From NCBI GenBank assembly GCA_043804695.1, contig JAZDIV010000048.1:5941-69940 (forward strand): a stretch of 64,000 nt of DNA, given 5' to 3'. The translations under genes and the position numbers were made by a program. This document shows, in pieces, positions 4,664-50,850 of this stretch; within the stretch, counting starts at the first letter, position 1, and each line of letters opens with the position of its first letter. Under the pieces are notes generated by a model. That model ran no database searches. It worked only from the letters and a program-made list of their open reading frames with translations, and was not told the DNA's origin. Origin of the DNA: PVC group bacterium (lineage in GTDB: Bacteria; Auribacterota; Erginobacteria; Erginobacterales; Erginobacteraceae).

Positions 4664-4740
4664 CACGAAGGACACGAAGAATAACGGGAAACCGGATTCA
4701 ATTTTCCCCGCTTTCTTCGTGTCCTTCGCGTCCTTCGTGG
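4664..4740. repeat. Tandem-unit hairpin, CACGAAG family (copy 1)
   Basis: Left arm ccacgaa-aat-cacgaag-ga-cacgaag, right arm cttcgtg-tc-cttcgcg-tc-cttcgtgg, separated by a ~30 nt loop. Confidence 0.8.
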
Positions 4741-4886
4741 TATTTTTATTTTTCCTCCGGAATAATAAAAAATATCAGGCTAATATAAAAGTTACATAGT
4801 GGGGGGGAGATGTGGGCTGGGGTGTTAAAGATGTCTTTTAATTGTGCAGCCTAGTGTCACGTCTCAGAAATGTCTTGAATATTTTT

Positions 4887-4990
4887 GTCATTGCGAGCCG
4901 AAGCCGCGAGCGCAGCGTGGCGGGCAGCGAAGCAATCTCAATTCGTTGCAATACAATAGATTGCTTCGTCGCTCTGCTCCTCGCAATGAC
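4887..4990. repeat. Palindromic 'GTCATTGCGAG...CGAAGCAATCT' element, copy C
   Basis: gtcattgcgagccgaagccgcgagcgc...cgaagcaatctcaattcg...agattgcttcgtcgctctgctcctcgcaatgac. Confidence 0.8.
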
Positions 4991-5150
4991 CGAATTATCT
5001 AATGCGATTTCCGAGACGGCACACTAGGGATGGGAACTGAAAAAACCGCCAAGACGCAGAGAACGCAAAGATGAACGGCAAAAAAACAGACCCGGATGCA
5101 TCTTTGCGATCTTTGCGGCCCGGCGGTTCGGAAAAATTGCCTGGCCCATC

Positions 5151-6395
5151 CTATCCGCGGAAGCGCCTGAAGATCAGGGTGCCGTTGTGTCCCCCGAAAC
5201 CGAAAGAGTTGCTGAGGGCGAACTCGATCTCCGCTTCCCGGGGCTGGTTGGGAACATAGTCAAGATCGCAATCAGGATCCGGGAACTCATAGTTGATGGT
5301 GGGCGGAATCAGACTGTGTTCCATCGCAAGCAGACAGGCGACGGCTTCCACCGCGCCGGCTGCGCCCAGAAGATGGCCGTGCATCGACTTGGTGGAACTG
5401 ATGGGGACCCTGGAAGCGTGGCTGCCGAAGACGGCCTTGATCGCCATGGTCTCAAACTTGTCGTTGAGCGGGGTCGATGTCCCGTGGGCGTTGATGTAAT
5501 CCACGTCTTCCGGGGCGATCCGGGCGTAATCGAGCGCCATCTTCATGCTCCGCGCGGCTCCTTCCCCACCGGGGGCGGGCGCCGTCAGGTGATAGGCGTC
5601 GCACGAACAACCGTACCCGGTGAGCTCCCCGTATATCTTCGCACCCCGCCGGCGGGCATGCTCCAGTTCTTCCAGAACCAGCATCCCCGCGCCCTCGGAC
5701 ATGACGAATCCGTCGCGCTCCCGGTCGAACGGGCGGCTGGCCTTTTCCGGGGCGTCGTTCCGGGTGGAGAGGGCTTTCATCGAACAGAACCCGGCCAGCC
5801 CGAGTTTGGTGTTCGACGCTTCCGCGCCGCCGGCCACAATCACATCGGCCAGACCATTGCGGATGCCCCAGAGCGCATCGCCGATCGAATGGGTGGCGGT
5901 GGCGCAGGCGGTCACCACGGCCAGGTTGGGGCCCTTGAGGCCGAAGATCATGGCGATCTGCCCCGGCAGCAGATTGATGATCATCATGGGCACCAGCAGG
6001 GGAGAGACCCGGCCGGGTCCTTTCTCCAGCATGATCTGGTGCTGAGTTTCAATGGTATTGAGCCCGCCGATCCCGGAACCGGCGTAAACGCCGATCCGGT
6101 TCAGGTCTTCGAGTTCGAGATCCAGACCTGAGTCCTCCAGCGCCTGCTTGGCGGCGATCACGCCCAGCTGACAGAACCGGTCCATTCTCTTCAATTGCTT
6201 CCGATCGAGGTGCTGGTCCGGGTCGAAGTTCTTGATCTCCCCGGCAATCTGGCTATCGAAGCCGGAAGGATCAAACGCCGTAATCCGGCCGATCCCGCTC
6301 CGGCAGGAAGCTAACGCATCCCAGAACTCAAACGGATTATTGCCGATCGGGGTTACGACTCCCATCCCGGTGATAACAACTCTCCGTTCGGCCAT
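5151..6395 (-). CDS. fabF: beta-ketoacyl-ACP synthase II
   Basis: 414 aa, MAERRVVITGMGVVTPIGN start, Cys-His-His KAS II architecture. Confidence 0.9.
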   Translation of the reverse strand: MAERRVVITGMGVVTPIGNNPFEFWDALASCRSGIGRITAFDPSGFDSQIAGEIKNFDPDQHLDRKQLKRMDRFCQLGVIAAKQALEDSGLDLELEDLNRIGVYAGSGIGGLNTIETQHQIMLEKGPGRVSPLLVPMMIINLLPGQIAMIFGLKGPNLAVVTACATATHSIGDALWGIRNGLADVIVAGGAEASNTKLGLAGFCSMKALSTRNDAPEKASRPFDRERDGFVMSEGAGMLVLEELEHARRRGAKIYGELTGYGCSCDAYHLTAPAPGGEGAARSMKMALDYARIAPEDVDYINAHGTSTPLNDKFETMAIKAVFGSHASRVPISSTKSMHGHLLGAAGAVEAVACLLAMEHSLIPPTINYEFPDPDCDLDYVPNQPREAEIEFALSNSFGFGGHNGTLIFRRFRG

Positions 6396-6506
6396 TCCTT
6401 CCTCCTTTTTTGGAAATATAAAACCTGCCCGGACCCGCCGTCGAAAAGACGGCGGGTACGGGCCGGCCGGCTAATCCGGCTATGGGGCCGGAGCCCTCAG
6501 CCACGT

Positions 6507-6746
6507 TCAGGACTTGGCGTTTTCTTCGATGTACTTGATGGCGGCGCCGACGGTGGTGAGCTTCTCCGCTTCCTCATCGGGGACCTCGATCTCGAAGGCC
6601 TCTTCCAGGGCCATGACCAGCTCGACGGTATCCAGAGAGTCCGCTCCCAGATCGTCAATAAAAGACGCCTCCTCGGTCACCTCTTCCGGGTTGACGCCCA
6701 GCTGCTCCACGATGATATCCTTGACCTTCTGTGTCACTTCAGACAT
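6507..6746 (-). CDS. acpP: acyl carrier protein
   Basis: 79 aa with the DLGADSLD phosphopantetheine attachment motif. Confidence 0.9.
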
Positions 6747-6954
6747 TTTTCTTCCTCCTTTTGCAGATTAAGCCGCCGCCCCGGGCGGGGCGGGACTTCA
6801 TTGACTTCGATTTCGTTGCCGACAAACTGACTTTCGTTCTGCCTGATTGCCGCTACCGTGTGAAAAGCCGATCAAAATAAATAACCTTATCGCACCTCCC
6901 TGTTGTTTAAACAAAAGCTGCATCCTGGAGGCAACATCGTAAAAAGTAGCGCCG

Positions 6955-7695: not shown

Positions 7696-7896
7696 ACCTC
7701 TTCTCCCGCTCAGTAAACAGATGATTAGATACTGTGTTTCCCTCTACCCCGGCCCCTTTTTTAACAGACGATTGAATGTGATTGAATAGGATTTATGGCC
7801 TATACCCGGGCCTCTAAAGACGGTAAACGATAAAAGTGCAGACCCGGTGCCGGGCCAACCGTTTACTGATCACTGCTTACTGATTACCTGTTTTCG

Positions 7897-7937
7897 GTTC
7901 AACGTTCAACGTTGGACGTTCGATGTTCGACGTTCAT
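7897..7937. repeat. Heptamer tandem TTCRACG (GAACGTTC palindromes) in fabH 3' region
   Basis: ggttcaacgttcaacgttggacgttcgatgttcgacgttcat immediately downstream of the fabH stop. Confidence 0.7.
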
Positions 7938-7946
7938 CCCTTATTG

Positions 7947-8933
7947 TTACCATCTGACCAGCGACGCCGCCCAGGTCAGTCCGCCCCCGAAGGCGACCAT
8001 CAGGAGCAGATCGCCCCTCTTGAGAACTCCATTGTGATCCATCTCCGCCAGGCCGACCGGGACCGTCGCCCCGGACATGTTCCCATAGCGGTCCACGTTG
8101 ATGTAGACCCGCTCTTCCGGTATCTTCAGGCCCTTGGCCACCGCTTTCATGATTCTCAGGTTCGCCTGATGAGGGAGAAGCCAGTCAACATCCTGCGGGG
8201 TCAGGCCGGCCTGGCTCAGGACCCGCCGGGCGGCGGAGACCATGGAGGAAACGGCGAGCTTGAAGACCTTGTTTCCTTCCATCCGTATGTACTGCCGGCG
8301 CTGGTCAAGAATCTGGTGAGTGATCGGGCAGGCTGAGCCGCCGGCTTCCACCTGCAGAAGCGAAGAGTACGCCCCGTCGGCCCCGATATAACAGTCGACG
8401 ATCTCGCCGTTAGCCGCGCCCTTGCTCAGGACCGCCGCCCCGGCGCCGTCGCCGAAAAGAACGCAGGTATTGCGATCCTCCCAGTCCGTCATCACCGAGA
8501 GCACTTCCGAGGCCGCGACCAGGGCGTGGCGGTATCTTCCCCCGCGCAGCAGCTTTTGTGCCAGCTCCAGGGCATAAATGAAACCGCAGCAGGCGGCGGA
8601 GATGTCGAAACAGGCAGCGGTCGTGTTCCCCAGCCGGGCCTGAAGCAGGCACGCGGCCGCGGGGAGCGGTGCATCGGGGGTAAAGGTGCCGAGAATGATC
8701 AGATCAAGCTGCTCCGGCTTCAGGCCGGCGCTTTTCAGGGCCTGCCGGGACGCTTGCTCGGCCATCGAGGCAGCCGTCTCTCCGGGAGCGGCAATCCGCC
8801 GCTCATTGATGCCGGTCCGGGCCAGAATCCATTCATTCGACGTGTCGACCATCTTCTCCAGGTCGGCATTGGTCAAGACTTTCTCGGGGACGTAAAAACC
8901 CGTTCCTGCAATCCCGATTTTTTCCTGGGCCAT
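7947..8933 (-). CDS. fabH: beta-ketoacyl-ACP synthase III
   Basis: 328 aa, typical FabH N-terminus (GTGFYVPEKVLTNADLEKMVDTSNEWI) and active-site Cys/His/Asn. Confidence 0.9.
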   Translation of the reverse strand: MAQEKIGIAGTGFYVPEKVLTNADLEKMVDTSNEWILARTGINERRIAAPGETAASMAEQASRQALKSAGLKPEQLDLIILGTFTPDAPLPAAACLLQARLGNTTAACFDISAACCGFIYALELAQKLLRGGRYRHALVAASEVLSVMTDWEDRNTCVLFGDGAGAAVLSKGAANGEIVDCYIGADGAYSSLLQVEAGGSACPITHQILDQRRQYIRMEGNKVFKLAVSSMVSAARRVLSQAGLTPQDVDWLLPHQANLRIMKAVAKGLKIPEERVYINVDRYGNMSGATVPVGLAEMDHNGVLKRGDLLLMVAFGGGLTWAASLVRW

Positions 8934-8957
8934 GTCTTTCTCCCTTGAAATTCGAAT

Positions 8958-9140
8958 CTATCCTTCCTTCACTTCCGCCGCCGCTCTCCCCTTGTAATAG
9001 CCGCAGTGCGGGCAGATCCGGTGCGGAGGACGGGGACGGCGGCAGTGCGGACAGAGGACGGTCCGGGGGAGGTCGTAGGCCTTCCCCGACTGACGATTTC
9101 TTTTTCGACTCTTGCTGATCTTTCTTTTCGGAACGGCCAT
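8958..9140 (-). CDS. rpmF: 50S ribosomal protein L32
   Basis: 60 aa MAVPKRKISKSRKRNR... with CxxC...CxxC zinc ribbon. Confidence 0.9.
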   Translation of the reverse strand: MAVPKRKISKSRKRNRQSGKAYDLPRTVLCPHCRRPRPPHRICPHCGYYKGRAAAEVKEG

Positions 9141-9181
9141 GGCGGTACTATCCTTTTCAGTTCTAACTCATTTGTTTTATC

Positions 9182-10695: not shown

Positions 10696-10920
10696 AATAA
10701 ATTAGCGCCTCCGGCGCTAATTTAGAAGAATTGGAGTGAATTGTACCTTTTAAACGTGTAACAGACTGATAATTACCCAAGAATTAGTTTGAACGCAGCT
10801 GCTCAATAAACAACGGTAAGCCCTTAGTGTAATAAAACAAAATATTTTTTCCTGGTTGCTTTTTCGCCTGTTTCGGGAGTTCAATAATTGGATCTTTCCG
10901 ATTATTGAAATTCCGAAACA
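10696..10920. repeat. ~225 bp dispersed repeat (family 2), copy 1; begins with start-codon hairpin B and ends with A'-A palindrome
   Basis: About 95% identical to 27414-27644. Contains ttagcgcctccggcgctaa at the rsmD ATG and tgtttcgggagttcaataat...attattgaaattccgaaaca at the distal end. Confidence 0.85.
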
Positions 10921-11004: not shown

Positions 11005-11060
11005 CCGTTCGACGTTGGGCGTTGAACGTTGAACGTTGAACGTTCATTGTTCGATGTTCA
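11005..11060. repeat. Heptamer tandem (GAACGTT/TTSRACG) in recG 3' region
   Basis: cgttcgacgttgggcgttgaacgttgaacgttgaacgttcattgttcgatgttcat just downstream of the recG stop. Confidence 0.7.
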
Positions 11061-11067
11061 TCCCTCC

Positions 11068-13140: not shown

Positions 13141-13270
13141 TAATAAATTAGCTCGCTGCGCTCGCTACTTTATAATGGACCCGATTGATTCAATCGGGGT
13201 CTGTTGGTTAATTAAGATATTTTCACCGAGGCAACAATATACAAAAGCCTTTCCAACATCAGCCAACATT
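13141..13270. repeat. ~130 bp dispersed repeat (family 3), copy 1
   Basis: taaattagctcgctgcgctcgctactttataatggacccgattgattcaatcggggtctgttggtta... also found at 43292 and 47397. Confidence 0.85.
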
Positions 13271-13458
13271 TGTCTTCCGGGATATGATTTTTCTGTTGGC
13301 TTACGGTAACCCACTCTGATTTTTTCGAAGAAAAAATCAGATTATTGAAATTCCGAAACAGCGAGATAACTTTATCCTTGTTTAACGTTCTTCCCTGTGC
13401 TAAACAAGGCTTCCTCAATCAACCGAAAAGGGATGACTTAATTAAGGATTATAACACC

Positions 13459-19779: not shown

Positions 19780-19845
19780 AACATTAAAAAATGGAGATCA
19801 GATAATCAGTAGGGAGTTGATCAGGAAATACATAAGAAGGTTATC

Positions 19846-20050
19846 GGATGATCAGGAAATCAGCAGGCAGATTATCGGGGTATTAAGGTTATCAGTCAGG
19901 GGGGCTCGCAATCTGATCACCTGATCTTCCGGTATCCCTTCCAAGGATATCAGATGATCAGGAAATCAGTAGGCAGATGATCAGGGTATAAGGTTATCAG
20001 GCAAGGGGGCCTCGCAATCTGATCACCTGATCCTCCGGTATCCCTCCCAC
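19846..20050. repeat. Tandem direct repeat (~108 bp period, about 2.5 copies), TGATCAG-rich
   Basis: gatgatcaggaaatcagcaggcagattatcggggtattaaggttatcagtcaggggggctcgcaatctgatcacctgatcttccggtatccc repeated at 19955-20045 with about 90% identity; a partial unit lies at 19800-19845. Confidence 0.8.
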
Positions 20051-20133
20051 TGATACCCTGATCACCTGATATCCCTTCCTTAGGTATCCCTCCCACTGAT
20101 ATCATGTTTTCCTGATACGCTATCTTCCCCTCT

Positions 20134-21154: not shown

Positions 21155-21245
21155 GAATTTGGGATTTGTGATTTGTAATTTATTTGTTATTTGGAATTTG
21201 TGATTTGTAATTTATTCCCATTAATCGCATTAACGTATTAGTTAA
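21155..21245. repeat. AT-rich tandem repeat (TTTGTGATTTGTAATTTATT x2) between ruvA and ruvB
   Basis: gaatttgggatttgtgatttgtaatttatttgttatttggaatttgtgatttgtaatttatt. Confidence 0.7.
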
Positions 21246-21865: not shown

Positions 21866-21899
21866 AAATAACTAAGCTCCGCAACTTTTTTGACAGGAC

Positions 21900-22020
21900 G
21901 ATTTGGGGACAGGACGATTACCCCCAACCTCACCCCCTTTTTAGCAGGACGATTATACGGCAGGACTATTAATTATAAGGGTTTTATTTTGTCTGAATTA
22001 TTTATCCTTCATCGTACTGT
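21900..22020. repeat. Tandem-unit hairpin, CAGGACGATT family
   Basis: gacaggacgatt x2, agcaggacgatt and ggcaggactatt on the left arm, with ataaatcgtcctgct on the right. Confidence 0.65.
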
Positions 22021-22068
22021 CGATAAATCGTCCTGCTTATACTCAGGAGAACATTAAATAGTACACAT

Positions 22069-22147
22069 GTCATTGCGAGGAACGAAGTGACGAAGCAATC
22101 TTAGCCAATTTAAAAACAAGAGATTGCTTCGCTCCGCTCGCAATGAC
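22069..22147. repeat. Palindromic 'GTCATTGCGAG...CGAAGCAATCT' element, copy D
   Basis: gtcattgcgaggaacgaagtgacgaagcaatcttagcc...agattgcttcgctccgctcgcaatgac. Confidence 0.8.
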
Positions 22148-23505: not shown

Positions 23506-23590
23506 AAGTGTAAAGTTTAAAGTGTAAGGTGTAAAGAATTCGCTTCTCTTGGCATTTAGACAGCAGCAGCAATCTTTACACTTTACACTT
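23506..23590. repeat. Tandem-unit hairpin, GTGTAAAG family (copy 1)
   Basis: gtgtaaagtttaaagtgtaaggtgtaaag...ctttacactttacac; related copies at 26965 and 35646. Confidence 0.75.
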
Positions 23591-23592
23591 AT

Positions 23593-23762
23593 CAGTCAGT
23601 CCATAATTATATGGACATGTCATTGCGAGGAGCGAAGCGACGAAGCAATCTCAACCCCATGCGCGGCAAGGGATTGCTTCGCGTAGTCTACCCCGATTTA
23701 TCGGGGCTCGCAATGACCGCAATCGTTGATGTAATTACTATAACGGTCGGATTAATAACACT
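23593..23762. repeat. Palindromic 'GTCATTGCGAG...CGAAGCAATCT' element, copy B (full length, inverted relative to copy A)
   Basis: agtcagtccataattatatggacatgtcattgcgagg...cgaagcaatct...ctcgcaatgaccgcaatcgttgatgtaattactataacggtcggattaataac is the reverse complement of 3250-3397. Confidence 0.85.
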
Positions 23763-23774: not shown

Positions 23775-23825
23775 ACATCGCACATCCCCCCTCCTCCCGC
23801 GCCGGCGCGGGAGGAGGGGAGTGGT
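23775..23825. repeat. GC-rich near-perfect palindrome (15 bp arms)
   Basis: cccctcctcccgcgccggcgcgggaggagggg. Confidence 0.7.
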
Positions 23826-26175: not shown

Positions 26176-26376
26176 AGTTAGAAACGGATTGAAATAAGTG
26201 CCTAAAGTTCAAAGTGCCTAAAGTGCCTAAAGTTAAAACTGCCCGCCGTGACTCTTGGCCGGGCGGGCCGGAACCGCCGGCGGAGCAATACTATAATTAC
26301 CGCAAGGAATGCCGAAGGCATTCCGATCCGGCAAGTCCCGGAGCGAAGCGACTGGACGATACTACATCTGTTCCAT

Positions 26377-26937: not shown

Positions 26938-26964
26938 ATAAGTTAGCGCCTCCGGCGCAACTTG

Positions 26965-27026
26965 GTGTAAAGTTTAAAGTGGAAAATGTAAGGGATCTTT
27001 ACACTTTACACCTGACACTTTACACA
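26965..27026. repeat. Tandem-unit hairpin, GTGTAAAG family (copy 2)
   Basis: gtgtaaagtttaaagtggaaaatgtaagggatctttacactttacacctgacactttacac. Confidence 0.75.
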
Positions 27027-27398: not shown

Positions 27399-27413
27399 AT
27401 GATACCCTCCCCT

Positions 27414-27644
27414 TATAAATTAGCGCCTCCGGCGCTAATTTAGAAGAATTTGGAGTGAATTGTACCTTTTAAACGTGTAACAGACTGATGATTACCCAAG
27501 AATTAGTTTGAATGTAACTGCTCAATAAACAACGGTAAGCCTTGAGTGTAATAAAATAAAACAAAATATTTTTTCCTGGTTGCTTTTTCGCCTGTTTCGG
27601 GAGTTCAATAATCGGATCTTTCCGATTATTGAAATTCCGAAACA
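27414..27644. repeat. ~225 bp dispersed repeat (family 2), copy 2
   Basis: Near-identical to 10696-10920; carries hairpin B at the ABM gene's ATG and an A'-A palindrome distally. Confidence 0.85.
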
Positions 27645-27833
27645 GGCACGTTAGCTCACGCATTAGATACTACAAAGCATACTCTCACGTCAATAAAACA
27701 AACGTACGGGCGGCACGTGGTGGAGAAAAAAGCAGGACTTCCGTTACATAAAAAAACCAGATAGACGAATCTATCCGGGAAAAAAGATTACTACAGCCAC
27801 AGTTTAAGAGAGAGAGACTGTGTAACAGTTTAA

Positions 27834-28522: not shown

Positions 28523-31591
<3,069 letters not shown>

Positions 31592-35278: not shown

Positions 35279-35289
35279 CTATAAATTAG

Positions 35290-35465
35290 CGCCTTCGGCG
35301 CAACTTGGTTACGGCCAGGGTAACGATGCCCGTTTCGGCAAAGGTAACGGTAACGGCCACTCCGCCTGGCGCACGTAACCGTAACCGGCAGACGAAACCC
35401 CGATAAATCGGGGCAGGCTGGGCCTCGTAACCGTAACCGTAGCCGTTATTGAAATTCCAAAGCAG
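35290..35465. repeat. ~170 bp dispersed repeat (family 4, GTAACGG-rich), copy 1
   Basis: ggttacggccagggtaacgatgcccgtttcggcaaaggtaacggtaacggcc...gtaaccgtaaccgtagccgttattgaaattcc; about 85% identical to 38812-38960. Confidence 0.85.
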
Positions 35466-35468: not shown

Positions 35469-35607
35469 CTTAGCCCTCACTTCGCTCGGGCGACTAAATA
35501 AAACTACGAATTACGCGAATTACACGAATTTTCTTTAAAATATCCCTGCACTGTCGGTTCAATGCTTGCACATTCTTATTTTTCCGGAGGAAAAATAAGA
35601 TTATTGA
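35469..35607. repeat. ~135 bp dispersed repeat (family 5), copy 1
   Basis: ctacgaattacgcgaattacacgaatt...gttcaatgcttgcacattcttatttttccggaggaaaaataag; second copy at 44153-44300. Confidence 0.8.
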
Positions 35608-35645: not shown

Positions 35646-35700
35646 GGTGTAAAGTTTAAAGTGTAAGGAATCTTTACACTTTACACCTGACACTTTACAC
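35646..35700. repeat. Tandem-unit hairpin, GTGTAAAG family (copy 3)
   Basis: gtgtaaagtttaaagtgtaaggaatctttacactttacacctgacactttacac. Confidence 0.75.
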
Positions 35701-35917
35701 AGCTTTATTGAACTCCCGAAACAGGGAATGAGCGCCTTCGGGGATGACTTCTATTCCGGCAAAGGTTGGGGTGATTACTTCCAAAATGGATATCGGATTA
35801 TCAGCATATCAGTGGGAAGGACATCAGGAACTTAGGAGAACAGGTAAGGGCTCGGCCTCGCCTGATAATCTGATATCCTGAGGCCCTTCCCACAGATATG
35901 CTGATTCCCTGGTATCC

Positions 35918-37756
35918 TTATTTCTCTTCTCCCCCTTCATCCGCGGGGGCGGTGTCTTCCCCTGACATTTCAGAAGCCGGGGTGGCCGGCCCGGCTATCG
36001 ATTCGGCCAGTTTTTCCAGGCCGTCCTTGAGGCGGGTGTCGACATCTTTCATCCGGGGCCGCACCGTCTCCGCACCGGCGGGCGGTTCCTGCTCCAGCCC
36101 TTTTCCCTGGAGATAGTTTTTAATGCTCAGGGCGATCCGCCGCTCGTCCTTATCGATATTGATCACCTGCGCCTTGACCGCGGCGCCTTCCGCAATGACG
36201 TCTTTAATGTTCTCAAACGGCTTGTCGCTGACCTGGGAGATATGCACCAGCCCCTCGATGCCGGAGTCAAGCTCCACAAACACGCCGAAGCCGGTGACCT
36301 TGGTCACCTTCCCTTCGACAACATCGCCCGGCATATACCTGCTGGTGACCTCCTCCCAGGGATCGATCCCCATCTGCTTGGTCCCCAGGGAGATTTTTTT
36401 ATTTTCAGCGTCAATCGAAAGAACAACCGCCTCCACCTTGTCGCCCCGCTTGAACAGCTGAGAAGGATGGGCTATCTTCTTCGTCCAGGACATGTCGGAG
36501 ACGTGAATCAACCCGTCGATGCCCTCCTCCAGCTCAAGAAACGCCCCGTAGGAGGTCATGTTCCGGATCTTCCCCTTAACGACACTGCCCACCGGGAACC
36601 TGTCGGCAACCTGCGTCCAGGGGTTGACCTCGAGCTGCTTGATCCCGAGCGAGATTTTTTCTTCTTCCGGCTGAGTCTTCAGGACCACGATCTCGATGAC
36701 ATCGCCGATCGCGAGAATATCGGTCGGGTGGTTGATCTTGCGGGTCCAGGAGAGCTCGGAGATGTGGACCAGTCCCTCCACTCCGTCTTCCAGCTCGACA
36801 AAAGCCCCGTAGGGCATGATGTTCACCACCCGTCCCTGGACTTTCTTGCCGGGAGGATACTTTTCGCCCACCGACTCCCAGGGGTTGGGGGTCTTCTGCT
36901 TGAGTCCCAATGAGACCCGTTCCCGTTCCCGGTCATACTTCAGAATCTTGACTTCGACCTCATCCCCCACCGCCAGCAGCTCGGAGGGATGGCTGATCCG
37001 GCCCCAGGACATGTCCGTGATATGGAGGAGGCCGTCCAATCCTCCCAGATCTACGAAAACCCCGAAGTCGGTTATGTTCTTGACCACGCCTTTCCTGATG
37101 TCGCCTTCCGCGATCTCGGAGAGGAGCTTGGTCCGGGCACGGGTGCGCTCTTCTTCCAGAAGTTCCCGGCGGGACAAAACGATATTCCGCCGGCGTTCAT
37201 TGATTTTGATGATTTTGAACGCGAATTCCCGGCCCATCAGGCTGTCTTTATCTTTAATGTAGTGGATGTCGATCTGGGAGGCGGGCAGAAAAGCGTCCAG
37301 GCCGATATCGACCATCATCCCGCCTTTCACCCGCCGGGAGATAACCCCGGAAATGCTGTCCCCTTCCTGATACTGGGAGACGACCCGCTCCCAGTTTTTC
37401 AGCTTGTCCGCCTTCTGCTTGGAGATGCAGACCATCCCGTCCCTGTCTTCCAGACGCTCGAGGAAAACCTCCACCGTGTCCCCGGTCTGGAGGCTGGTCT
37501 CGGTCTCAAATTCACTCAGGGGGATCAGGCCCTCGGACTTGTAGCCGATATCGATAACCACGTATTCAGAACGGATCCCGTAAATCCGGCCGGTTACCAT
37601 CTTCCCTTCTTCGAGATGCTGCATGGTCGCCTCGACCATCCCCGCCAGCTCTTCCCGGGACATCGTCTCCCCGGCGCCGCTTTCTTGAATCGGTTGGGTT
37701 GTTTCGTTCGTCAGTTCCGTCATCTCACGTATTCCTTCCTGTTGCGGATATCCCAT
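35918..37756 (-). CDS. rpsA: 30S ribosomal protein S1
   Basis: 612 aa with six S1 domains and an acidic C-terminal tail; the start may be the MTELT ATG 11 codons in. Confidence 0.9.
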   Translation of the reverse strand: MGYPQQEGIREMTELTNETTQPIQESGAGETMSREELAGMVEATMQHLEEGKMVTGRIYGIRSEYVVIDIGYKSEGLIPLSEFETETSLQTGDTVEVFLERLEDRDGMVCISKQKADKLKNWERVVSQYQEGDSISGVISRRVKGGMMVDIGLDAFLPASQIDIHYIKDKDSLMGREFAFKIIKINERRRNIVLSRRELLEEERTRARTKLLSEIAEGDIRKGVVKNITDFGVFVDLGGLDGLLHITDMSWGRISHPSELLAVGDEVEVKILKYDRERERVSLGLKQKTPNPWESVGEKYPPGKKVQGRVVNIMPYGAFVELEDGVEGLVHISELSWTRKINHPTDILAIGDVIEIVVLKTQPEEEKISLGIKQLEVNPWTQVADRFPVGSVVKGKIRNMTSYGAFLELEEGIDGLIHVSDMSWTKKIAHPSQLFKRGDKVEAVVLSIDAENKKISLGTKQMGIDPWEEVTSRYMPGDVVEGKVTKVTGFGVFVELDSGIEGLVHISQVSDKPFENIKDVIAEGAAVKAQVINIDKDERRIALSIKNYLQGKGLEQEPPAGAETVRPRMKDVDTRLKDGLEKLAESIAGPATPASEMSGEDTAPADEGGEEK

Positions 37757-37960
37757 CCGGGGACAACCGCCGCGGTTGCGCCGGCCGCTAGGACGACCGG
37801 CGGGGTTGTGTTATTTTTGCCGCCCCGGCAAAATCGGGGCGGTAAAAACAACGGTGTATTTTTGAGCCAAAGGGGGCGGAGGATAGCACCGGAGCGTTTC
37901 TGAGTCAATATCTAACTGGATTCGGTGTCCGACAATTGTCCGCCTATGATAAATGACGAA

Positions 37961-38108
37961 ACTCGAATGTCGAATGACGAAAGAATGACAAATTTAAAAT
38001 GACCAATGACGAACCCTCCCCGCCTGGGTGATGGGTTTATTTGTCATTAGACATTCTTTCGGCATTCGTTATTCGGATTTCGTCATTCGTCACTCATTCC
38101 TCATTGCG
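37961..38108. repeat. Tandem-unit hairpin, GAATGACGAA family (copy 1), between cmk and rpsA
   Basis: Left arm aaatgacgaa / gaatgtcgaa / tgacgaa units; right arm cattctttcgg / cattcgtt / atttcgtcattcgtc. Confidence 0.8.
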
Positions 38109-38811: not shown

Positions 38812-38960
38812 TCAGTGCCTTCGGCGCAACTCGGTTACGGCAAGGGTAACGATGCCCGTTTCGGGAAAGGTAACGGTAACGGCCGCCCCGCTTGGCGCAC
38901 GTAACCTTAACCGGCAGACGAAACAGGCCTCGTAACCGTAGCCGTAGCCGTAGCCGTTAT
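38812..38960. repeat. ~150 bp dispersed repeat (family 4), copy 2
   Basis: Begins with degenerate hairpin B (gtgccttcggcgcaac) at the cmk ATG, then ggttacggcaagggtaacgatgcccgtttcgggaaaggtaacggtaacgg...gttattgaaattccg. Confidence 0.85.
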
Positions 38961-40004: not shown

Positions 40005-40143
40005 AAAAATGACGAGAACCGAATGACGAAATCCGAATGACGAATCCCCTCCCCCGGCGGCGGGGTGGGTGTATATGTTACCTGGTCATTTGTCATTAAT
40101 ACATTCTTTCGGATTTCGTCATTCGGGTTTCGACATTCTTATG
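40005..40143. repeat. Tandem-unit hairpin, GAATGACGAA family (copy 2), between tyrA and aroB'
   Basis: aaaatgacgagaaccgaatgacgaaatccgaatgacgaatcc...tcatttgtcattaatacattctttcggatttcgtcattcgggtttcgacattc. Confidence 0.8.
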
Positions 40144-41136
40144 TCATTTCTCCACGATGCTCTCCCTGATCTTCGTCCCGAAGTGCCTTCCCCCCTCCTC
40201 AAAGTATGCCATCACCTCGTCACCTTTTTTCAGCGCCGCCACCGAGACCGGCCGGCCGGAAGGGCGGACCAGGCGGATGGTCTCCGCGTTCTGGAGGATC
40301 AGGCTGACCTCGCTCTTTTTCGCTTTCGCCTTTACCAGGAGCATCGGGCGTTTCTCCACTTTCGTCCGGCCGACAATGGCCGGCCGGGTCACTCCCCGGA
40401 AAGTCACCGCGAGCACCTCGCTCCCGATCGCGATCTCGGAGAGATAGCAGGTTTTTCCGTCCGGGAGCAGGGTATAGGCGTGGATGCCCCCGGCATTGAC
40501 CCGGAAGGGACGGGGAGCCACATAGGGGTTCCTGACGCTCTCGGCGTGGACCAGAAAGAAAGCCGAACCGGTGTTCCCCACCAGCATCCCCTCCCCCGGG
40601 CCCATTGCGGTGCAGGTGTCGACACAGACCCGGTCGCCCAGACCGAGTTCCCTGATCTCCGTGACCCGGGCCGGGGACGGAGCCAGTTTTTCCCGGGCGC
40701 CCTTGACCAGGTTGATGATCGCCCCGATCACCGCCGGATCCGCATTTTTCACCACCACCCCGGCAACGCCCTTTTCCAGGATTCCCAGGGCGGTCCGGGC
40801 CGCGGAGAGACTTTCCACGCGTGCCATCACCGCCCCCGATCGGGCGATGATATTTTCAAGCGGGATGATCTTCCAGTTCCCTCCGGAGACGATCACCGTC
40901 TTGCCCTTGCCCAGGGCCAGGATCCTGTCTTCGTCCGCCTGTTTTTTGATCTCGATCTCGACCACCGCCCTTCCCATTTTCAGGTCGCCGTCCGGACCGA
41001 CCGTGGTCAGCCTCCCCAGCTCCCGGACCGCTCCGGTCTTGCCCCGGGGGACGATGACTGCATCGGCGCCGTTTTCCAGGGCGGTCAACACCTTCTTCTT
41101 CGACCAGGGGCGGCAGTCTACCCATACTTTTTTCAT
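40144..41136 (-). CDS. aroB': 3-dehydroquinate synthase II (archaeal-type, AroB')
   Basis: 330 aa; strong resemblance to the DHQS-II family: MKKVWVD...W start, GDRVCVDTC, ENPYVA.RPFRVNAG, ILQNAETIRLV. Confidence 0.85.
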   Translation of the reverse strand: MKKVWVDCRPWSKKKVLTALENGADAVIVPRGKTGAVRELGRLTTVGPDGDLKMGRAVVEIEIKKQADEDRILALGKGKTVIVSGGNWKIIPLENIIARSGAVMARVESLSAARTALGILEKGVAGVVVKNADPAVIGAIINLVKGAREKLAPSPARVTEIRELGLGDRVCVDTCTAMGPGEGMLVGNTGSAFFLVHAESVRNPYVAPRPFRVNAGGIHAYTLLPDGKTCYLSEIAIGSEVLAVTFRGVTRPAIVGRTKVEKRPMLLVKAKAKKSEVSLILQNAETIRLVRPSGRPVSVAALKKGDEVMAYFEEGGRHFGTKIRESIVEK

Positions 41137-41165
41137 TAATCTTACCTATTTAGCCACCAAGACAC

Positions 41166-41345
41166 TAAGGCACCAAGGAAATAATTAGGAAGAGCGCCTA
41201 AAAAGAACTAATATGAAACGACGTGCCTGAAGTTGCAGTAATCTAATTCCTATTAGACGCGACCGCATGGGCCGGAATTATAATCATCCCGTAGCCCTGG
41301 CGTCATTACTTTACTCTTTTCTTCGTGCCTTGGTGCCTTGGTGGC
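41166..41345. repeat. Tandem-unit hairpin, CCAAGGCAC family
   Basis: Left arm ccaccaagacactaaggcaccaagg, right arm cgtgccttggtgccttggtgg, with a ~130 nt loop. Confidence 0.7.
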
Positions 41346-41347
41346 AT

Positions 41348-42145
41348 TTATTTTTTCTCCAGCAGTTGCATAGCCTCGGAAATGGACTTGTTCTCATGGA
41401 CCAAAAGATCGATGGACTTGATGATGGCGATCGGGTCTTCATGCTGGAAGACGTTTCTGCCGATGGAGACGCCACAGGCGCCCGCCTCCAGCGCCCCCCG
41501 GACCATGGCGAGCAGTTCCCGGTCGGTCTCCATCTTTTCCCCGCCCGCGATCACCACCGGGACCGGGCAGCCGGCGATCACCTCCCGGAAGCTCTCCGGA
41601 GTGCCGGTGTAATTAACCTTGACGATGTCCGCCCCCAGCTCCGCCCCGACCCGGGCGGCATGCTTGACGTACTTGACGTCGAACTGGTCCGTGATCCCTT
41701 CGCCCCGGGTGTACATCATCGCCAGCAGCGGCATCCCCCAGTCCCGGCAGTTCCTGGCCACGGTTCCCATGATTCCGAGCATCCGGCTGTCGGTCGGCGC
41801 GCCCAGGTTGACGTGGATGGAGACCGCGTCGGCGCCGAGCCGGACCGCCTCCGCCACCGTGCAGACCAGCACTTTGTCATGGGGATCGGGGCTCAAAATC
41901 GTGCTGGCGGAGAGATGGATGATCAGACCCACATCCTTGCCGCGCCCCCGATGTCCGGCCTTGACCATCCCCTTGTGCATGATGATCGCATTTGCCCCTC
42001 CGTTGACCACCCGGTCGATGGCCCGGCTCATGTCGGTCAAACCCGGGATCGGACCCAGAGTGATGCCATGGTCCATGGGGATGATGATGGTCCGGGCCGA
42101 GTCCCGGTTCATGATCCGTTCCATCCTGATTTCTTTGCCAACCAT
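41348..42145 (-). CDS. aroA': 2-amino-3,7-dideoxy-D-threo-hept-6-ulosonate synthase (ADH synthase, AroA'; DhnA-type class I aldolase)
   Basis: 265 aa; near-collinear with archaeal ADH synthase (PMDHG, GANA...[37 protein letters not shown], Schiff-base Lys region). Confidence 0.85.
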
Positions 42146-47396: not shown

Positions 47397-47530
47397 ATTA
47401 ATTAGCGCCTTCGGCGCTACTTAATAGCGGACCCCGATTGATTCAATCGGGGTCTGTTGGTTAACTAAAATTCTTACATCGATTCGCCATTATACAAAGG
47501 CCCCATAACCTCAGCCAACTTTTATTCTTG
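47397..47530. repeat. ~130 bp dispersed repeat (family 3), copy 3
   Basis: ttaattagcgccttcggcgctacttaatagcggaccccgattgattcaatcggggtctgttggttaactaaaattc... Confidence 0.85.
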
Positions 47531-47596
47531 AAGTATCCGTTAGCCGCAGGCCACAAGTTTCACAATTTTTTATTTTTTCACAGAAAAAATAAAAAA

Positions 47597-47674
47597 CCAC
47601 GAAGAGCACGAAGAGCACGAAGAGGGAAAAACACCTTATCCCGGTTTTCTTCGTGACCTTCGCGAGCTTCGTGG
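47597..47674. repeat. Tandem-unit hairpin, CACGAAG family (copy 2)
   Basis: ccacgaagagcacgaagagcacgaagag...cttcgtgaccttcgcgagcttcgtgg. Confidence 0.8.
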
Positions 47675-47727
47675 CAAATTGCTTTCTTCTGACTGCCGGG
47701 AGAATAACTCTCTCCGATCAGACCGGG

Positions 47728-48648
47728 TTACGGGATATGCGCTTTTTGGCTATCCTTCCGGGGGCGGCCTTTTTTTCTCCGCAACAGGCCGAAAATACCC
47801 CGCGCTTCGAACGCGCGATAATTCTGATAAAAGGCTTCACGGGTTATCCCGTATTTCTTGCAGATCGATCCGACATGGGGTTTGGGGGAGGTCGCCGACT
47901 CGCGGATCATCTCCAGCTTGACCTGGGCGGGATCCTGCCAGTTGAGAAAAGAATGGAGGCTGTAGGTCCTCGCTTCCGGCTTTTTCTCCAGGAAAGGGAA
48001 CGGGATGAAGCCCGGCAGCTGCTTCAGGTATAGCCGGGTCTCTCCGTATTGAGCGATCAGTTTCTTCAGTTCCCGCTGGCCGATGACCCCGAGCAATCCC
48101 CACACTTTAAACTTATTCAGATAGTTGTAGAAATCCTGGCGGGAGAAACTGAAGAAAGAGCTGATGGCCTTCACCCTCAGCTCCGGCTGCGCGTGCACCA
48201 GACGGAGATATTCGTATCGGTTGAGGAACTCATCTTCCAGAGGATAGTGGTACTTCCCGTTCAGCCGGATCAGCTCATTCCGCTGCTGGTCAAGGTAATA
48301 CCGGACCGCGTCGCGGATCCGGGACAGCTCGAACGGCTTGGTGATATAATCATCCACCCCCGCTTTCAGGGCCCGGACCGCGATCTCTTCCGAACCCCTC
48401 CCGGTCAAAATGATTACCTTGGCGAAAGGGAAGAGCTCCTTGATCTCCGGGAACAGTGCCAGCCCGTCAACGCCCGGCATCATGTAATCAAGCAGCACCA
48501 GGTTGGGAATAAAATCCTCCATTTTCCGCAATGCTTCTTTCCCCGAAGAGACCGCGTTGACCGAAAACCCCAGCCGCTGGAAATACTGGACGAGTAGCTC
48601 CCGGACCTGTTTTTCATCATCAACAATCAATATCTTTTTTGAGAACAT
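47728..48648 (-). CDS. response regulator with CheY-like receiver and C-terminal tandem transposase-type HTH domains
   Basis: 306 aa; REC domain (DDE...D...K). The C-terminal half carries two HTH segments resembling IS3-family OrfA HTH (…ICKKYGITREAFYQNYRAF…). Confidence 0.7.
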   Translation of the reverse strand: MFSKKILIVDDEKQVRELLVQYFQRLGFSVNAVSSGKEALRKMEDFIPNLVLLDYMMPGVDGLALFPEIKELFPFAKVIILTGRGSEEIAVRALKAGVDDYITKPFELSRIRDAVRYYLDQQRNELIRLNGKYHYPLEDEFLNRYEYLRLVHAQPELRVKAISSFFSFSRQDFYNYLNKFKVWGLLGVIGQRELKKLIAQYGETRLYLKQLPGFIPFPFLEKKPEARTYSLHSFLNWQDPAQVKLEMIRESATSPKPHVGSICKKYGITREAFYQNYRAFEARGIFGLLRRKKGRPRKDSQKAHIP

Positions 48649-48784
48649 GGTATGCTGGCCTCCTTCATAAATTTGCTCACTTCGCTTGCAAATTAATGTT
48701 AATCACGACTTCAATATAATAAACATACATTGCTGTTGAGACAATAGCTATACCCTATTCGAAAAACTTATCCCTTGGAAACAA

Positions 48785-48874
48785 AACTAATTAAAACCAC
48801 GGAGGACACAGAGCACACGGAGAATTTTAAAAAAATGTGCGAAATCTATTCATTAACATCTATTTTTTCTCCGT
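48785..48874. repeat. Tandem-unit hairpin, CACGGAG variant of the CACGAAG family (copy 3)
   Basis: ccacggaggacacagagcacacggag...ctccgtgatctccgag; both arms changed in parallel relative to copies 1 and 2. Confidence 0.75.
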
Positions 48875-49123
48875 GATCTCCGAGATAGAATTCAAGCCAT
48901 ATTCGAGAATAAGCCGCTTAAAATACCTTTTCGAGTAAGGTATCACTATCCTTACCATAGTTAAAAGGTTTACAGATAGCAAGGATAATTTTTCCTCCGG
49001 GGAAACGGCCCCGCGCAACGCCGCCCCTCCGCGCGCCGCCGACCGCCCGCCTCCCCGGCCGGGGGACGGCGATTTCTCCGCCGGCCGGCGCCCGGGGGGA
49101 CAGCGCGAGACAATGACCGGCTT

Positions 49124-50065
49124 CTATCCGCGGGGATGAAAGCGCCGGTGCACTTCCTTGAGGCGCTCGCGGTCAACATGGGTGTAGATCTGGGTGGTGC
49201 TGATGTTGGAGTGGCCGAGCAGCTCCTGGACCACCCGGAGGTCCGCCCCCTGGCTGAGGAGATGGGTGGCGAACGAATGGCGGAGCGTATGGGGGCCGGC
49301 CTTTTTCTTGATCCCGGCCCGGCGAAGGTAGGTCTTCACCAGACACCAGAGCCATTGCCGCGTAAAGTGCTTTCCCTGCCGGGAGAGGAAAAGGTCCGGG
49401 GAGGCGGACTTCTTGAGCAGAAGCGGACGGGACCACTCCAGGTAATCGGAAAGGGCCCGGGCGGCTTTCCGGCCCAGGGGCACTATCCGCTCCCGGGCTC
49501 CCTTCCCCCAGGCGCGGACAAACCCCGACTGCAGGTTGACGTCATCGACCCGGAGACCGATCAGTTCGGAAGCCCGCAGCCCGCTGGCATACAGCAGCTC
49601 CAGAACCGCCCGGTCTCTTAAACCCAGGGGGGTGGAAAGATCCGGCTGGCCGAGAAGAGATTCCACTTCCGCGATGGAGAGGACCTGGGGGAGTATCTTC
49701 CAGAGACGGGGAGACTCCACCACCTCGGTCACATCCCGCCTCAGGTATCCCTCCAGGGTCAGAAACCGGAAGAGCATCCGGATCGAGACGAGCGTCCGGG
49801 AGAGGGAACGAGGTGTCAGACCGCGATCCTTCTCGGCCAGCAAAAAATCCATCACGTCGTCCCGCTCGACGGCCGCCAATCCTCCTGGGCCCTTCCGGCT
49901 CAAGAACGTGATGAACTTCTCCAGATCGGTCCGGTAACTGCAGGTCGTGTTGGGGCTCAACCCCCGTTCGACATCGAGGTAGCGGATGAACTCATCCAGG
50001 TAGATTTTTCCCGAGGGGAAAAATCTATCGAGTGAAGAAGCCTGGGTAACGTTATCTCGCCCCAT
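49124..50065 (-). CDS. xerD: tyrosine recombinase XerD/XerC
   Basis: Phage-integrase N-terminal SAM-like domain and catalytic R...HxxR...Y (HTLRHSFATHLL...GHSNISTTQIYTHV). The start is taken at the internal ATG (50065) to avoid a 70 nt overlap with the upstream gene. Confidence 0.85.
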   Translation of the reverse strand: MGRDNVTQASSLDRFFPSGKIYLDEFIRYLDVERGLSPNTTCSYRTDLEKFITFLSRKGPGGLAAVERDDVMDFLLAEKDRGLTPRSLSRTLVSIRMLFRFLTLEGYLRRDVTEVVESPRLWKILPQVLSIAEVESLLGQPDLSTPLGLRDRAVLELLYASGLRASELIGLRVDDVNLQSGFVRAWGKGARERIVPLGRKAARALSDYLEWSRPLLLKKSASPDLFLSRQGKHFTRQWLWCLVKTYLRRAGIKKKAGPHTLRHSFATHLLSQGADLRVVQELLGHSNISTTQIYTHVDRERLKEVHRRFHPRG

Positions 50066-50090
50066 AGCTGCGCCGGTTACATTTCCACTA

Positions 50091-50738
50091 TTATTTTTCA
50101 CCAGGAAAAATAATAAAGGGGTTGGAATTCCTTTCTTCGCCGATGGTAGAATGGGGGCCATGACCGGGAAGAATCATCGTATCATCCGGGAAAGACAGCA
50201 GGCGATTCTTGATGCTCGCCATGAGTTGATTCATGGATCCTCCGGGAAAATCAGTGCGGCCGACTCCCCCCGCGAAGAGGGTGTCGCCGGTGAAGACAAG
50301 ATCCGGCTCATCGCCGCGGGGAAGCCGGAGACAGACACTTCCCGGGCTGTGCCCGGGAGTGGACACGACCTTCAGCTTCAGCCGGCCGACCTCGACCTCA
50401 TCATCATCCTGAAGTTCCCGGTCGCAGGCAGGCGAATCGATTCGCCCGAGGCCGAGCAGACTCAAATTACGATCCGGATCGGCCAGAGCACCGGCATCCG
50501 CATGATGAATGAGCAAAGGAACCCCGTACTGCTCTTTCAACGCCCGGTTGGCGGCGATGTGATCGATATGGCCGTGGGTGTTGATCAAGACGACCGGGGT
50601 GAGGTTCTCCCTTTCGATCACCGAGACAATCACATCCGGGTCCCCGCCGGGATCGATGATTGCAGCCTGCCCGTCGTCATCGGCCAGAATGTAACAGTTA
50701 GCCTGAAGAGTCCCGACGACCAGCCTTTTAATCTTCAT
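50091..50738 (-). CDS. MBL-fold metallo-hydrolase (glyoxalase II-like)
   Basis: 215 aa; HxHxDH zinc motif (THGHIDH). Confidence 0.8.
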   Translation of the reverse strand: MKIKRLVVGTLQANCYILADDDGQAAIIDPGGDPDVIVSVIERENLTPVVLINTHGHIDHIAANRALKEQYGVPLLIHHADAGALADPDRNLSLLGLGRIDSPACDRELQDDDEVEVGRLKLKVVSTPGHSPGSVCLRLPRGDEPDLVFTGDTLFAGGVGRTDFPGGSMNQLMASIKNRLLSFPDDTMILPGHGPHSTIGEERNSNPFIIFPGEK

Positions 50739-50785
50739 CTGACGCTTCTCTCCTCTTAAAAAGTATTTTTAACTTGTTATCAGGT

Positions 50786-50850
50786 ATTCTTTCGGATTGC
50801 GTCATTCGTAATTCGACATTCCTTCGGATTTCCTCATTTGAATTTCGGAA
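50786..50850. repeat. GAATGACGAA-family half element (right-arm type only)
   Basis: cattctttcggattgcgtcattcgtaattcgacattccttcggatttcctcatttgaatttcgg. Confidence 0.6.

Follow-up and report, generated by a model that had tools for sequence, protein, structure and literature searches.

What are the long hairpins that stand between the housekeeping genes of this bacterium, and is it their folding or their sequence that is kept? The window, by which we mean the whole 64,000-nt stretch of contig JAZDIV010000048.1 that was analyzed, comes from a PVC-group bacterium that is a relative of Auribacterota, and its spacers hold inverted repeats whose arms are short tandem units, for instance three copies of CACGAAG facing their complements. 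A first-pass annotation had seen in these repeats secondary structure preserved by compensatory changes. We find that each of these hairpins is two tandem arrays facing each other, and that the array, not the base-paired RNA, is primary. Tentatively, we regard the elements as horizontally shared intergenic modules with fast turnover, like the repetitive extragenic palindromes (REP) and bacterial interspersed mosaic elements (BIME), which fold into transcript hairpins just after stop codons.

The elements are real and far from chance. In the window, tandem units of 6-10 nt form about 17 inverted pairs and no fewer than 7 solo arrays, and nearly all of these lie between genes (Table 1). In a strict test, which asked for an exact 6-mer twice at 7-14-nt spacing and its reverse complement twice within 160 nt, 6 loci were recovered, compared with 0.02 ± 0.14 in 100 block-wise dinucleotide shuffles. 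Chains of at least three copies of a 5-mer at 6-12-nt spacing numbered 27, and 19 of the 27 fell in the intergenic 17.5% of the window. RNA folding gave z-scores of -4 to -8.5 for 11 of 13 elements, the weak ones being 48797-48884 (-2.5) and 21894-22037 (-3.3). At 17 loci the arms consist of 2-4 units of 6-10 nt, an array being a purine-rich unit plus a spacer of 0-3 nt, and at least nine unit families coexist in the 11 kb of spacer of this one genome. The shared tandem-unit architecture that the first-pass annotation described does exist, since 11 of the 17 loci it listed are inverted repeats with arms of 2-4 units; 50786 and 26190, in contrast, proved to be one-armed, and the four CGAAGCAATC loci belong to a different element, the nested palindrome GTCATTGCGAG...CTCGCAATGAC. 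Loops, which had been put at 20-45 nt, actually span 7-135 nt in the window, and several hairpins and solo arrays, marked in Table 1, had been missed.

The claim that pairing is preserved while the sequence drifts was examined in the CACGAAG family. A scan of the viral collection IMG/VR with CACGAAGnnCACGAAGnnCACGAAG returned CACGAAG triplets in at least 120 stretches, corresponding to at least 84 non-redundant contig groups. Loci in this collection are redundant, and all counts use non-redundant sequences or groups; viral results refer throughout to the matches listed, and contigs classified as viral may include host DNA. Two relatives of the window are also used below. By TyrA, the window's own contig was recovered at 100% identity, and the nearest other genome is a metagenome-assembled genome (MAG) contig, L042, with 78% identity, which is fully syntenic with the window from 34 to 50 kb, followed by Candidatus Euphemobacter frigidus with 71%. 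Alignment A1 comprises 21 non-redundant CACGAAG hairpins of 3 + 3 units from the viral matches, the window and L042, and represents this one family. As seen in A1, standard pairs amounted to 88.9%, versus 89.5% when the 3′ arms were redealt among elements, and 428 of 500 shuffles reached the observed value; the covariation score was 0.089 versus 0.097 and was reached by 393 of 500 shuffles. Not one of the 21 departures from the unit consensus was mirrored on the partner arm, and in one element (L070) three CACAAAG units, a variant carried across the whole arm, face three CACGAAG units. The first-pass annotation had itself proposed a covariation analysis and had named a lack of covariation as the outcome that would tell against it; a lack of covariation is what these hairpins exhibit, and with the failed compensation the claim of selection on secondary structure is largely refuted for this family.

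The observation that only unit positions pair was, on the other hand, confirmed. Units were Watson-Crick paired in 420 of 441 cells and spacers in 42 of 126, the latter being the level of chance (47 ± 5.5 when arms of different elements were paired). The G found in place of A on both arms at 48785 is literally there, but it is a difference between families and not covariation within one. The unit 7-mers of the CACGAAG hairpins are about 97% at consensus, a value that is partly ascertainment because the viral search forced one arm to consensus, and it seems to be the 7-mer itself that is maintained rather than pairing. That the arms are complementary follows from their being made of one and the same unit; it is not a sign of pairing under repair.

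The arrays also follow sequence rules of their own. The first is polarity, with the purine-rich strand running 5′ to 3′ toward the center from both sides. Neighboring arrays had the order CACGAAG then CTTCGTG 26 times and the reverse order never, and the purine-richer arm came first in 20 of 21 palindromic repeat elements of the window. When twenty stringent elements were drawn from the window and 12 loci, 13 sequences in all, the split was 15 versus 4 (p = 0.019); one TGGAGT-family element is an exception. Ordinary non-repeat hairpins of the window (23788-23819 and 57846-57895) are pyrimidine-first, so the polarity rule belongs to the tandem-unit class. The second rule concerns the spacers, which in CACGAAG hairpins are 87% purine on the purine strand of both arms and for that reason are often unable to pair. 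Third, the outer boundary is sharp, TTTnAC standing directly before the first CACGAAG unit (T-rich, any base, A in 90% and C in 82% of 127 arms among the matches listed).

Neither the loops nor the partners are fixed in the same way. No relation in sequence or length was seen among the loops of 22 CACGAAG hairpins (18-110 nt in the viral copies listed), and one of these loops, in viral locus L120, holds a complete GTCATTGCGAG element. With unrelated loops of 18 to 135 nt, the hairpins are not degenerate copies of one miniature transposable element with inverted repeats (MITE). Among the matches listed, 63 of 117 triple arrays had no partner within 300 nt, and in some pairs the partner comes from a different unit family; the whole deoC gene of Euphemobacter (L044) stands between a GTGACTAAAG array and its complement. 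As a control, two shuffled heptamers with the same 9-nt period were searched; they matched 41 and 36 viral stretches, among which convergent pairs numbered 1 and 0, and many of these control matches look like long same-strand arrays of up to 457 nt.

Comparison with relatives showed how fast the elements change. Three hairpins stand at orthologous spacers in the window and L042, namely the CACGAAG hairpin after the response regulator gene, the GAATGACGAA hairpin after the type II 3-dehydroquinate synthase (DHQS-II) gene and the GTGTAAAG hairpin before tyrS. By eye, their units are largely retained and their spacers and loops are different. At the shared CACGAAG hairpin, L042 also keeps the U-run and the following AT hairpin (in the window, 47597-47674 is followed on the minus strand by TTTTTTATTTTTT and then the AT hairpin). 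Other spacers hold different elements, as the cmk-rpsA and deoC-DHQS spacers carry a TGGAGTA-family hairpin in L042 and another family in the window, and the cca-trpS spacer carries a hairpin in L042 and just 34 nt in the window. In Euphemobacter, DHQS-II is separated from tyrA by 31 nt, tyrA and cmk overlap, and elements are absent at both places, including the hairpin found at 40005-40140 in the window; other families (GGTTCA, CTTTAGTCA and CGCAAAGA) occur elsewhere in that genome, and two further relatives have GATTACT, GGCAGTGGG and GATACCG arrays. Overall, gain, loss and replacement of the elements take place over the time in which genera diverge.

The same units also occur far outside this lineage. 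The heptamer array at 7909-7938 (ACGTTGGACGTTCGATGTTCGACGTTCATC) is identical at 30 of 30 positions to 5855-5884 of L010, a Desulfobacterales MAG with 39% G+C; it is solo after the fabH stop in the window, and in L010 it forms an arm of an approximately 190-nt hairpin. Positions 60068-60094 match L002 at 26 of 27 positions, and similar hairpins were observed in Syntrophaceae and Desulfobacteraceae loci. When empty and filled sites were sought in related viral contigs, redundant loci were 100% identical, and the one indel seen, of 78 nt, lay away from the array. No linked gene emerged, the open reading frames (ORFs) of the window being all housekeeping and clustering of the viral ORFs giving no family in more than 6 of the 84 groups listed.

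Placement relative to genes suggests a role in transcripts. Window arrays start 0-26 nt after stop codons. In viral contigs, where crude ORF calls (53 arrays "inside" genes probably lie in spurious ORFs) allow a trend only, co-directional spacers had their arrays at a median of 24 nt after the stop, and 12 convergent versus 3 divergent spacers were counted. A U/T-run follows three window copies (4654-4740, 47597-47674 and 40005-40140). A further case is an RNA gene. Helix 45 of the 23S rRNA (30287-30330, minus strand; gene 28523-31591) has a 23-nt insertion relative to the Rfam model, and the extended hairpin consists of two 9-nt tandem units per arm (UUGAACGGU twice, facing CUGUUUGAA-type units), with G.U pairs valid on the rRNA strand only. 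Since this extension shares the tandem-unit design, the design functions as RNA. Separately, a second 23S insertion of about 23 nt was found at model positions 1258-1271.

How might such arrays work? We propose that the evolving entity would be the tandem array of purine-rich unit and spacer, whose arms change independently. The head-to-head layout would be tolerated, is probably useful and would let the elements persist, as any transcript of it would fold back into a long bulged stem-loop behind the stop codon. The purine arm would be transcribed first, and the pyrimidine arm could pair at once and would never be exposed as single-stranded RNA; because the inverted repeat is symmetric, this protection would hold from either side of transcription. 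The stem-loop could act as a barrier at the mRNA 3′ end, as a processing site or, where a U-run follows, as a terminator, and operon expression would remain intact. We infer, in addition, that some sequence-specific factor or copying process would act on the arrays.

Several observations weigh against this proposal. Solo arrays make up more than half of the total, and the hairpin therefore cannot be the sole reason for the existence of the arrays. Most of the viral CACGAAG copies listed have no U-run after them and carry GTnAAA there instead, and a scan for terminator and promoter consensus sequences gave no enrichment (27 versus 20.5 for terminator-like sites). On the transcribed strand of co-directional spacers in the window, G.U and A.C combinations were balanced (60 versus 58, and about 28 versus 33 for the tandem-unit hairpins); with no G.U excess, no RNA-specific selection on pairing is visible. 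Adjacent spacers are no more alike than chance (14 of 84, versus 11.6 expected), which means that the arrays are not simply fresh products of slippage. Given the ascertainment in the search, the case for a 7-mer conserved beyond the needs of pairing leans mainly on the sharp boundary and on spacers that are purine-biased and not complementary. As for mobility, it is deduced only from presence and absence at about 78% protein identity, neither a target-site duplication nor a strain-level insertion event was seen, and no transposase, REP-associated tyrosine transposase (RAYT) or other shared gene was found near the elements in the window or within about 7 kb of the viral copies listed.

Purine-biased spacers, a sharp boundary and a fixed orientation favor recognition at the level of DNA or sequence. 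Among the three options that the first-pass annotation had offered, arrays of binding sites fit the sequence rules best, although we consider it unlikely that this is what the elements are. They would then be double-stranded DNA arrays for oligomerizing proteins, such as ribbon-helix-helix or nucleoid proteins, with one dimer per 7-9-bp unit and the convergent pair serving as a bipartite site. Such binding would account for units that match the consensus on either arm next to variable spacers and loops and uncompensated pairing, for an arm distance that may extend to a whole gene, for the many solo arrays, for the fixed orientation and the sharp boundary motif, and for the lack of wobble asymmetry; this idea, with global regulators or integration host factor (IHF) and HU as the proteins, was already voiced by Aklujkar et al. 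However, at least nine families in 11 kb of spacer would each need a protein of their own, and a purine-first rule across unrelated families would not be expected from independent proteins. The same units also recur in phage contigs and distant phyla without a shared neighbor gene, and a single binding geometry does not accommodate periods of 7, 8, 9 and 10 nt.

It is rather doubtful that the arrays are functionless, with replication slippage building them, template switching at quasi-palindromes copying them to the other strand, and spacers tolerating the result. Among the long simple repeats of many bacteria, heptamers are the most frequent, and slippage has been put forward as their cause (Mrazek 2007, as cited in PMC4679880). 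The whole-arm variant of L070, perfect 9-mer triplets on one arm only (47597, plus strand, and L072), the fast turnover between relatives and the absence of covariation are all consistent with such an origin. Nevertheless, adjacent spacers are at chance likeness next to 7-mers at about 97% consensus, and template switching predicts complementary spacers at birth, where those observed are at chance level. Slippage also leaves unexplained the 26:0 polarity, the TTTnAC boundary, the 30/30 identity across phyla and the excess over the shuffled-unit controls.

That the elements are non-autonomous transposons of the MITE or REPIN (REP doublet forming hairpin) type, with the arrays as terminal inverted repeats and a transposase encoded elsewhere, appears improbable. 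The fixed polarity, a sharp conserved terminal motif at both ends, presence and absence between relatives, and the spread across phyla and phage contigs would agree with it, and in Geobacter metallireducens insertion sequence (IS) elements insert at a fixed distance from comparable sites, termed class 1 (PMC2700814). On the other side, the interior is unconserved and may measure only 18 nt, the inverted repeat runs on into the flanks (TTTnAC ... GTnAAA) with no direct repeat or target-site duplication, there is no linked transposase, half of the arrays are solo, and the conserved GTAG of REP is absent.

We give a similarly slim chance to the arrays being products or targets of an undescribed sequence-specific process common to phages and several phyla. 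One version may be templated addition of (unit + purine spacer)n to the 3′ ends flanking a break, followed by joining. Such a geometry, that of a head-to-head telomere fusion, would yield strict polarity, unrelated filler loops and sharp outer boundaries. Another version may be a trans-acting recognizer of the purine-strand 9-mer. If a process of this kind were at work, the elements would be a new sort of micro-element and not a REP-like hairpin.

Very improbable, and largely refuted for the CACGAAG family, is the leading idea of the first-pass annotation, structured RNAs or DNA cruciforms whose secondary structure is selected through compensatory changes, because the very stable folding, the G variant on both arms of 48797-48884 and the rRNA-strand-only G.U pairs of helix 45 that speak for it are met by negative covariation, 0 of 21 deviations compensated, spacers at chance, no G.U bias, unconstrained loops, no Rfam match at E ≤ 1, solo arrays and partners from other families.

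The horizontally shared modules that we favor matter beyond this locus. They occupy a large share of the intergenic DNA of the lineage, inside housekeeping operons that are otherwise conserved. Gene callers render them as spurious small proteins, and the repeats may hamper metagenome assembly. Whatever reads or copies the units, once found, could point to a general way of punctuating operons or to a new horizontal route for tiny DNA elements.

Table 1. Tandem-unit hairpins, solo arrays and the nested palindrome of the window (positions within the 64,000-nt window; z, folding z-score; dG, folding free energy; "missed", not in the first-pass annotation)
Feature	Position	Strand	Context	Remarks
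CACGAAG hairpin, 3 + 3 units, 9-nt period, 31-nt loop	4654-4740		between convergent ada and fabF	dG -44.7, z -8.5; T-run follows on plus strand
CGCAAAGA/CGCAGAGA hairpin	5044-5128			z -6.2; unit family also in Euphemobacter L044 (cmk to S1) and Syntrophaceae L035
Two adjacent ATCAG-type (GATATCAG/GTGATCAG) hairpins	19839-19937, 19945-20074		downstream of ruvB	z -8.1; missed
CAGGACGATT hairpin, 3-4 units versus about 2 on other arm	21894-22037			weak, z -3.3
GTGTAAAG hairpin	23506-23590		22 nt upstream of yebC	
GTGTAAAG hairpin	26965-27025		upstream of efp	z -5.9
GTGTAAAG hairpin	35646-35700		S1 to tyrS spacer	kept at orthologous L042 site
ATCAG-type long hairpin	35783-35922		begins at S1 stop codon	z -8.3; missed
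GAATGACGAA-type hairpin with inner GC hairpin	37947-38092		cmk to S1	z -7.5; TGGAGTA-family hairpin at L042 site
CGGTTA/CGGCTA hexamer-array hairpin	38832-38950 (element to 38957)			second copy of about 130 nt at about 35300-35450; missed
GAATGACGAA-type hairpin	40005-40140		3 nt after DHQS-II stop	z -5.9; U-run follows; kept in L042
CCAAGGCAC arms, 135-nt loop	41153-41345		whole deoC to DHQS spacer	TGGAGTA-family element at L042 site
CACGAAG hairpin, 3 + 3 units	47597-47674		downstream of response-regulator gene	z -6.1; conserved in L042
CACGGAG/CACAGAG x3 versus CTCCGTG/CTCCGAG x2	48797-48884			weak, z -2.5; unit equals class 2 TCTCCGTS of G. metallireducens
ATCAGTA / TACTGAT (TACCGAT) heptamer pair	56858-56933			missed
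ATCAGTA/ATCAGTG x5.5 and short complementary arm	60055-60130		overlaps stop of ORF 57920-60067	z -4.6; missed
Solo GAACGTY heptamer array	7897-7946	minus	directly after fabH stop	missed
Solo GAACGTY array	11013-11067	minus	directly after recG stop	missed
Degenerate solo GAACGTY array	55420-55472	minus	after stop of ORF 55473-56126	missed
Solo CAAAT-type heptamer array, 7 copies	21157-21207	minus	ruvB-ruvA spacer	missed
Solo TGCCTAAAG/TTCAAAG array	26190-26233		upstream of EF-G gene	no partner arm
Solo GAATGACGAA-type array	50786-50850			no partner arm
Nested palindrome GTCATTGCGAG...GAAGCAATC / GATTGCTTC...CTCGCAATGAC	3294-3372, 4887-4990, 22069-22147, 23619-23717			

Two entries of Table 1 can be described further. 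The GTCATTGCGAG palindrome, a separate family, has a single conserved arm of about 32 nt around a variable center, without tandem 10-mers, and is purine-first; the GTCATTGCGAG...CTCGCAATGAC palindrome was also seen in a Thermodesulfobacteriota MAG (L016), in L046 and in viral L120, a family across phyla. In the element of about 130 nt at 35300-35450 and 38832-38957, a GC hairpin stands amid arrays of the hexamers CGGTTA/CGGCTA and of their complements.

Other small repeats occur in the window. A hairpin with a GGAGG (or GAAGG) loop lies about 12 nt upstream of minus-strand start codons at 10698-10724, 27412-27446 and 62394-62420, with related forms at 35574-35600 and 54615-54643 and, by eye, at about 26938-26964, 35279-35305 and 47397-47425. 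It reads TTAGCGCC-GGAGG-CGCTAA or carries the same loop on an AT-rich stem, and it is present in L042; it looks like a lineage-wide 5′ untranslated region (UTR) motif with the Shine-Dalgarno sequence in the loop. A dispersed palindrome, TGTTTCGGGAGTTCAATAATYGGA / TCCGATTATTGAAATTCCGAAACA, occurs at 10869-10920 and 27590-27647, with half copies near 13380, 22195, 27030 and 35610. It often adjoins tandem-unit hairpins in a BIME-like mosaic, and it is present in L042 too. The pyrimidine-first hairpin at 23788-23819 is a perfect 32-nt palindrome (CCCCTCCTCCCGCGCC/GGCGCGGGAGGAGGGG) and is reminiscent of a multicopy element of G. metallireducens, the CCYTC-based "class 4"; according to the paper on that genome (PMC2700814), many genomes have sequences similar to class 4. 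Finally, a small conserved hairpin, CCCCGATTGA(ATC)AATCGGGG, is found in spacers at 13180-13198 and 47434-47452, and in Ca. Euphemobacter (L043, 15254-15272) with 19 of 19 positions identical.

The setting of the elements is a chromosome segment of about 57% G+C whose minus strand bears nearly all genes. These include fabF, fabG and fabH, recG, secDF, yajC, tgt, queA, queH, ruvABC, yebC and the genes for EF-G and EF-P, along with one rRNA operon, tyrS, rpsA, cmk, tyrA and genes for DHQS-II and a DeoC-type aldolase, as well as pheA, a CCA-adding enzyme gene, a response regulator gene and xerC, the last being the only transposase or integrase gene found in the 64 kb. The DHQS-II of Ca. Tritonobacter lacicola (Auribacterota) is 59% identical to the window protein. 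Strain-level relatives of the window were not found, JGI hits were at most 71% identical, and the ada protein (3574-4617) had no match in the collection searched. At 40144-42145, the DHQS-II gene (PF01959) adjoins that for the DeoC-family aldolase, an arrangement kept in all relatives fetched, which points to an archaeal-type entry into the shikimate pathway, via 2-amino-3,7-dideoxy-D-threo-hept-6-ulosonate and 6-deoxy-5-ketofructose 1-phosphate (ADH/DKFP), in this PVC-group lineage. In Rfam, only rRNA and tRNA reached the gathering score, and nothing in the window spacers matched at E ≤ 1. A sub-threshold match to the NiCo riboswitch at 8575-8670 (plus strand; 30.3 bits versus a gathering score of 37, E = 0.0097) is antisense to fabH, within its coding region, and is probably due to chance.

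How do the elements compare with systems already described? Heptad arrays, both direct and inverted, are bound by the ribbon-helix-helix protein omega of pSM19035, and MetJ recognizes 8-bp boxes in tandem. These operators resemble the window arrays in their contiguous 7-8-bp units, direct and inverted, with one dimer per unit, but they are few promoter or centromere sites of one replicon with a cognate gene, whereas the window has dozens of sites in many families. REP, BIME and REPIN of Enterobacteria and Pseudomonas are likewise abundant extragenic palindromes in operons and 3′ UTRs, arranged in mosaics and in lineage-specific families, and protection of mRNA 3′ ends and protein binding have been proposed as their roles. 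A REP, however, is a single imperfect palindrome of about 20-40 nt with a 5′ GTAG and linkage to RAYT, while the window units are tandem and without GTAG. Rho-independent bidirectional terminators share the stem-loop after the stop codon, the purine (A)-rich 5′ side and the pyrimidine (U)-rich 3′ side, and differ from the window stems, which are 25-65 bp long with periodic internal loops and loops of up to 135 nt. CRISPR, integron attC sites and iterons were set aside, as regular unique spacers, a cassette context and a replicon context, respectively, are missing.

Literature searches for GTCATTGCGAG and for CACGAAG dimers returned primers only, and in the literature searched the head-to-head class was neither named nor explained. 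Related arrays have nonetheless been recorded. In Beggiatoaceae, Cyanobacteria and Bacteroidetes, MacGregor (2015; PMC4679880) reported arrays of the heptamer TAACTGA, nearly all of them direct, and proposed horizontal transfer and an RNA-binding partner for them; a Nostoc preprint (bioRxiv 10.1101/2022.06.06.494920) reports heptamer arrays with regulatory effects and an unidentified partner. Like these arrays and the short tandemly repeated repetitive (STRR) sequences of cyanobacteria, the window elements are heptamer arrays between genes near start or stop codons, with a patchy distribution across phyla suggesting horizontal transfer, and ATCAGTA/TTACTGA-type units occur in the window and its relatives. 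The layout differs, as the BOGUAY genome has 169 direct sets versus 1 inverted, and the window arrays are mostly head-to-head and of many families.

The closest match is in G. metallireducens, for which Aklujkar et al. (2009; PMC2700814, Figs. S3 to S5) described paired tandem-repeat sites of classes 1 to 3, on opposite strands and at variable distance. The first-pass annotation was not aware of a described class with this organization, but one had thus been recorded. The classes are GTTGCTYN in four copies (24 pairs), TCTCCGTS[Y] in three (21 pairs) and MTYCTGA in five (8 pairs); the sites are intergenic, and IHF/HU-type global regulators were an untested guess of the authors. Reverse-complemented, TCTCCGTS of class 2 gives the CACGGAGA unit found at 48797-48884, and the class 3 core resembles the ATCAG family of the window, as at 19839-20074. 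All 8 class 3 pairs have their pyrimidine-rich 3′ ends outward, as in the window, and each site holds 3-5 tandem units of 7-9 nt, where the window has 2-4 units of 6-10 nt. The other unit families of the window and its 10-nt units are not in that paper, which treats one genome and does not report polarity, absence of covariation, purine spacers, turnover or spread. Overall, we infer that the window elements and the class 1-3 paired sites of G. metallireducens are the same class. With the rules described here, what was a footnote to a single genome paper becomes a class that is defined and whose properties can be tested, and since G. metallireducens is cultivable and carries the same class, experiments are possible.

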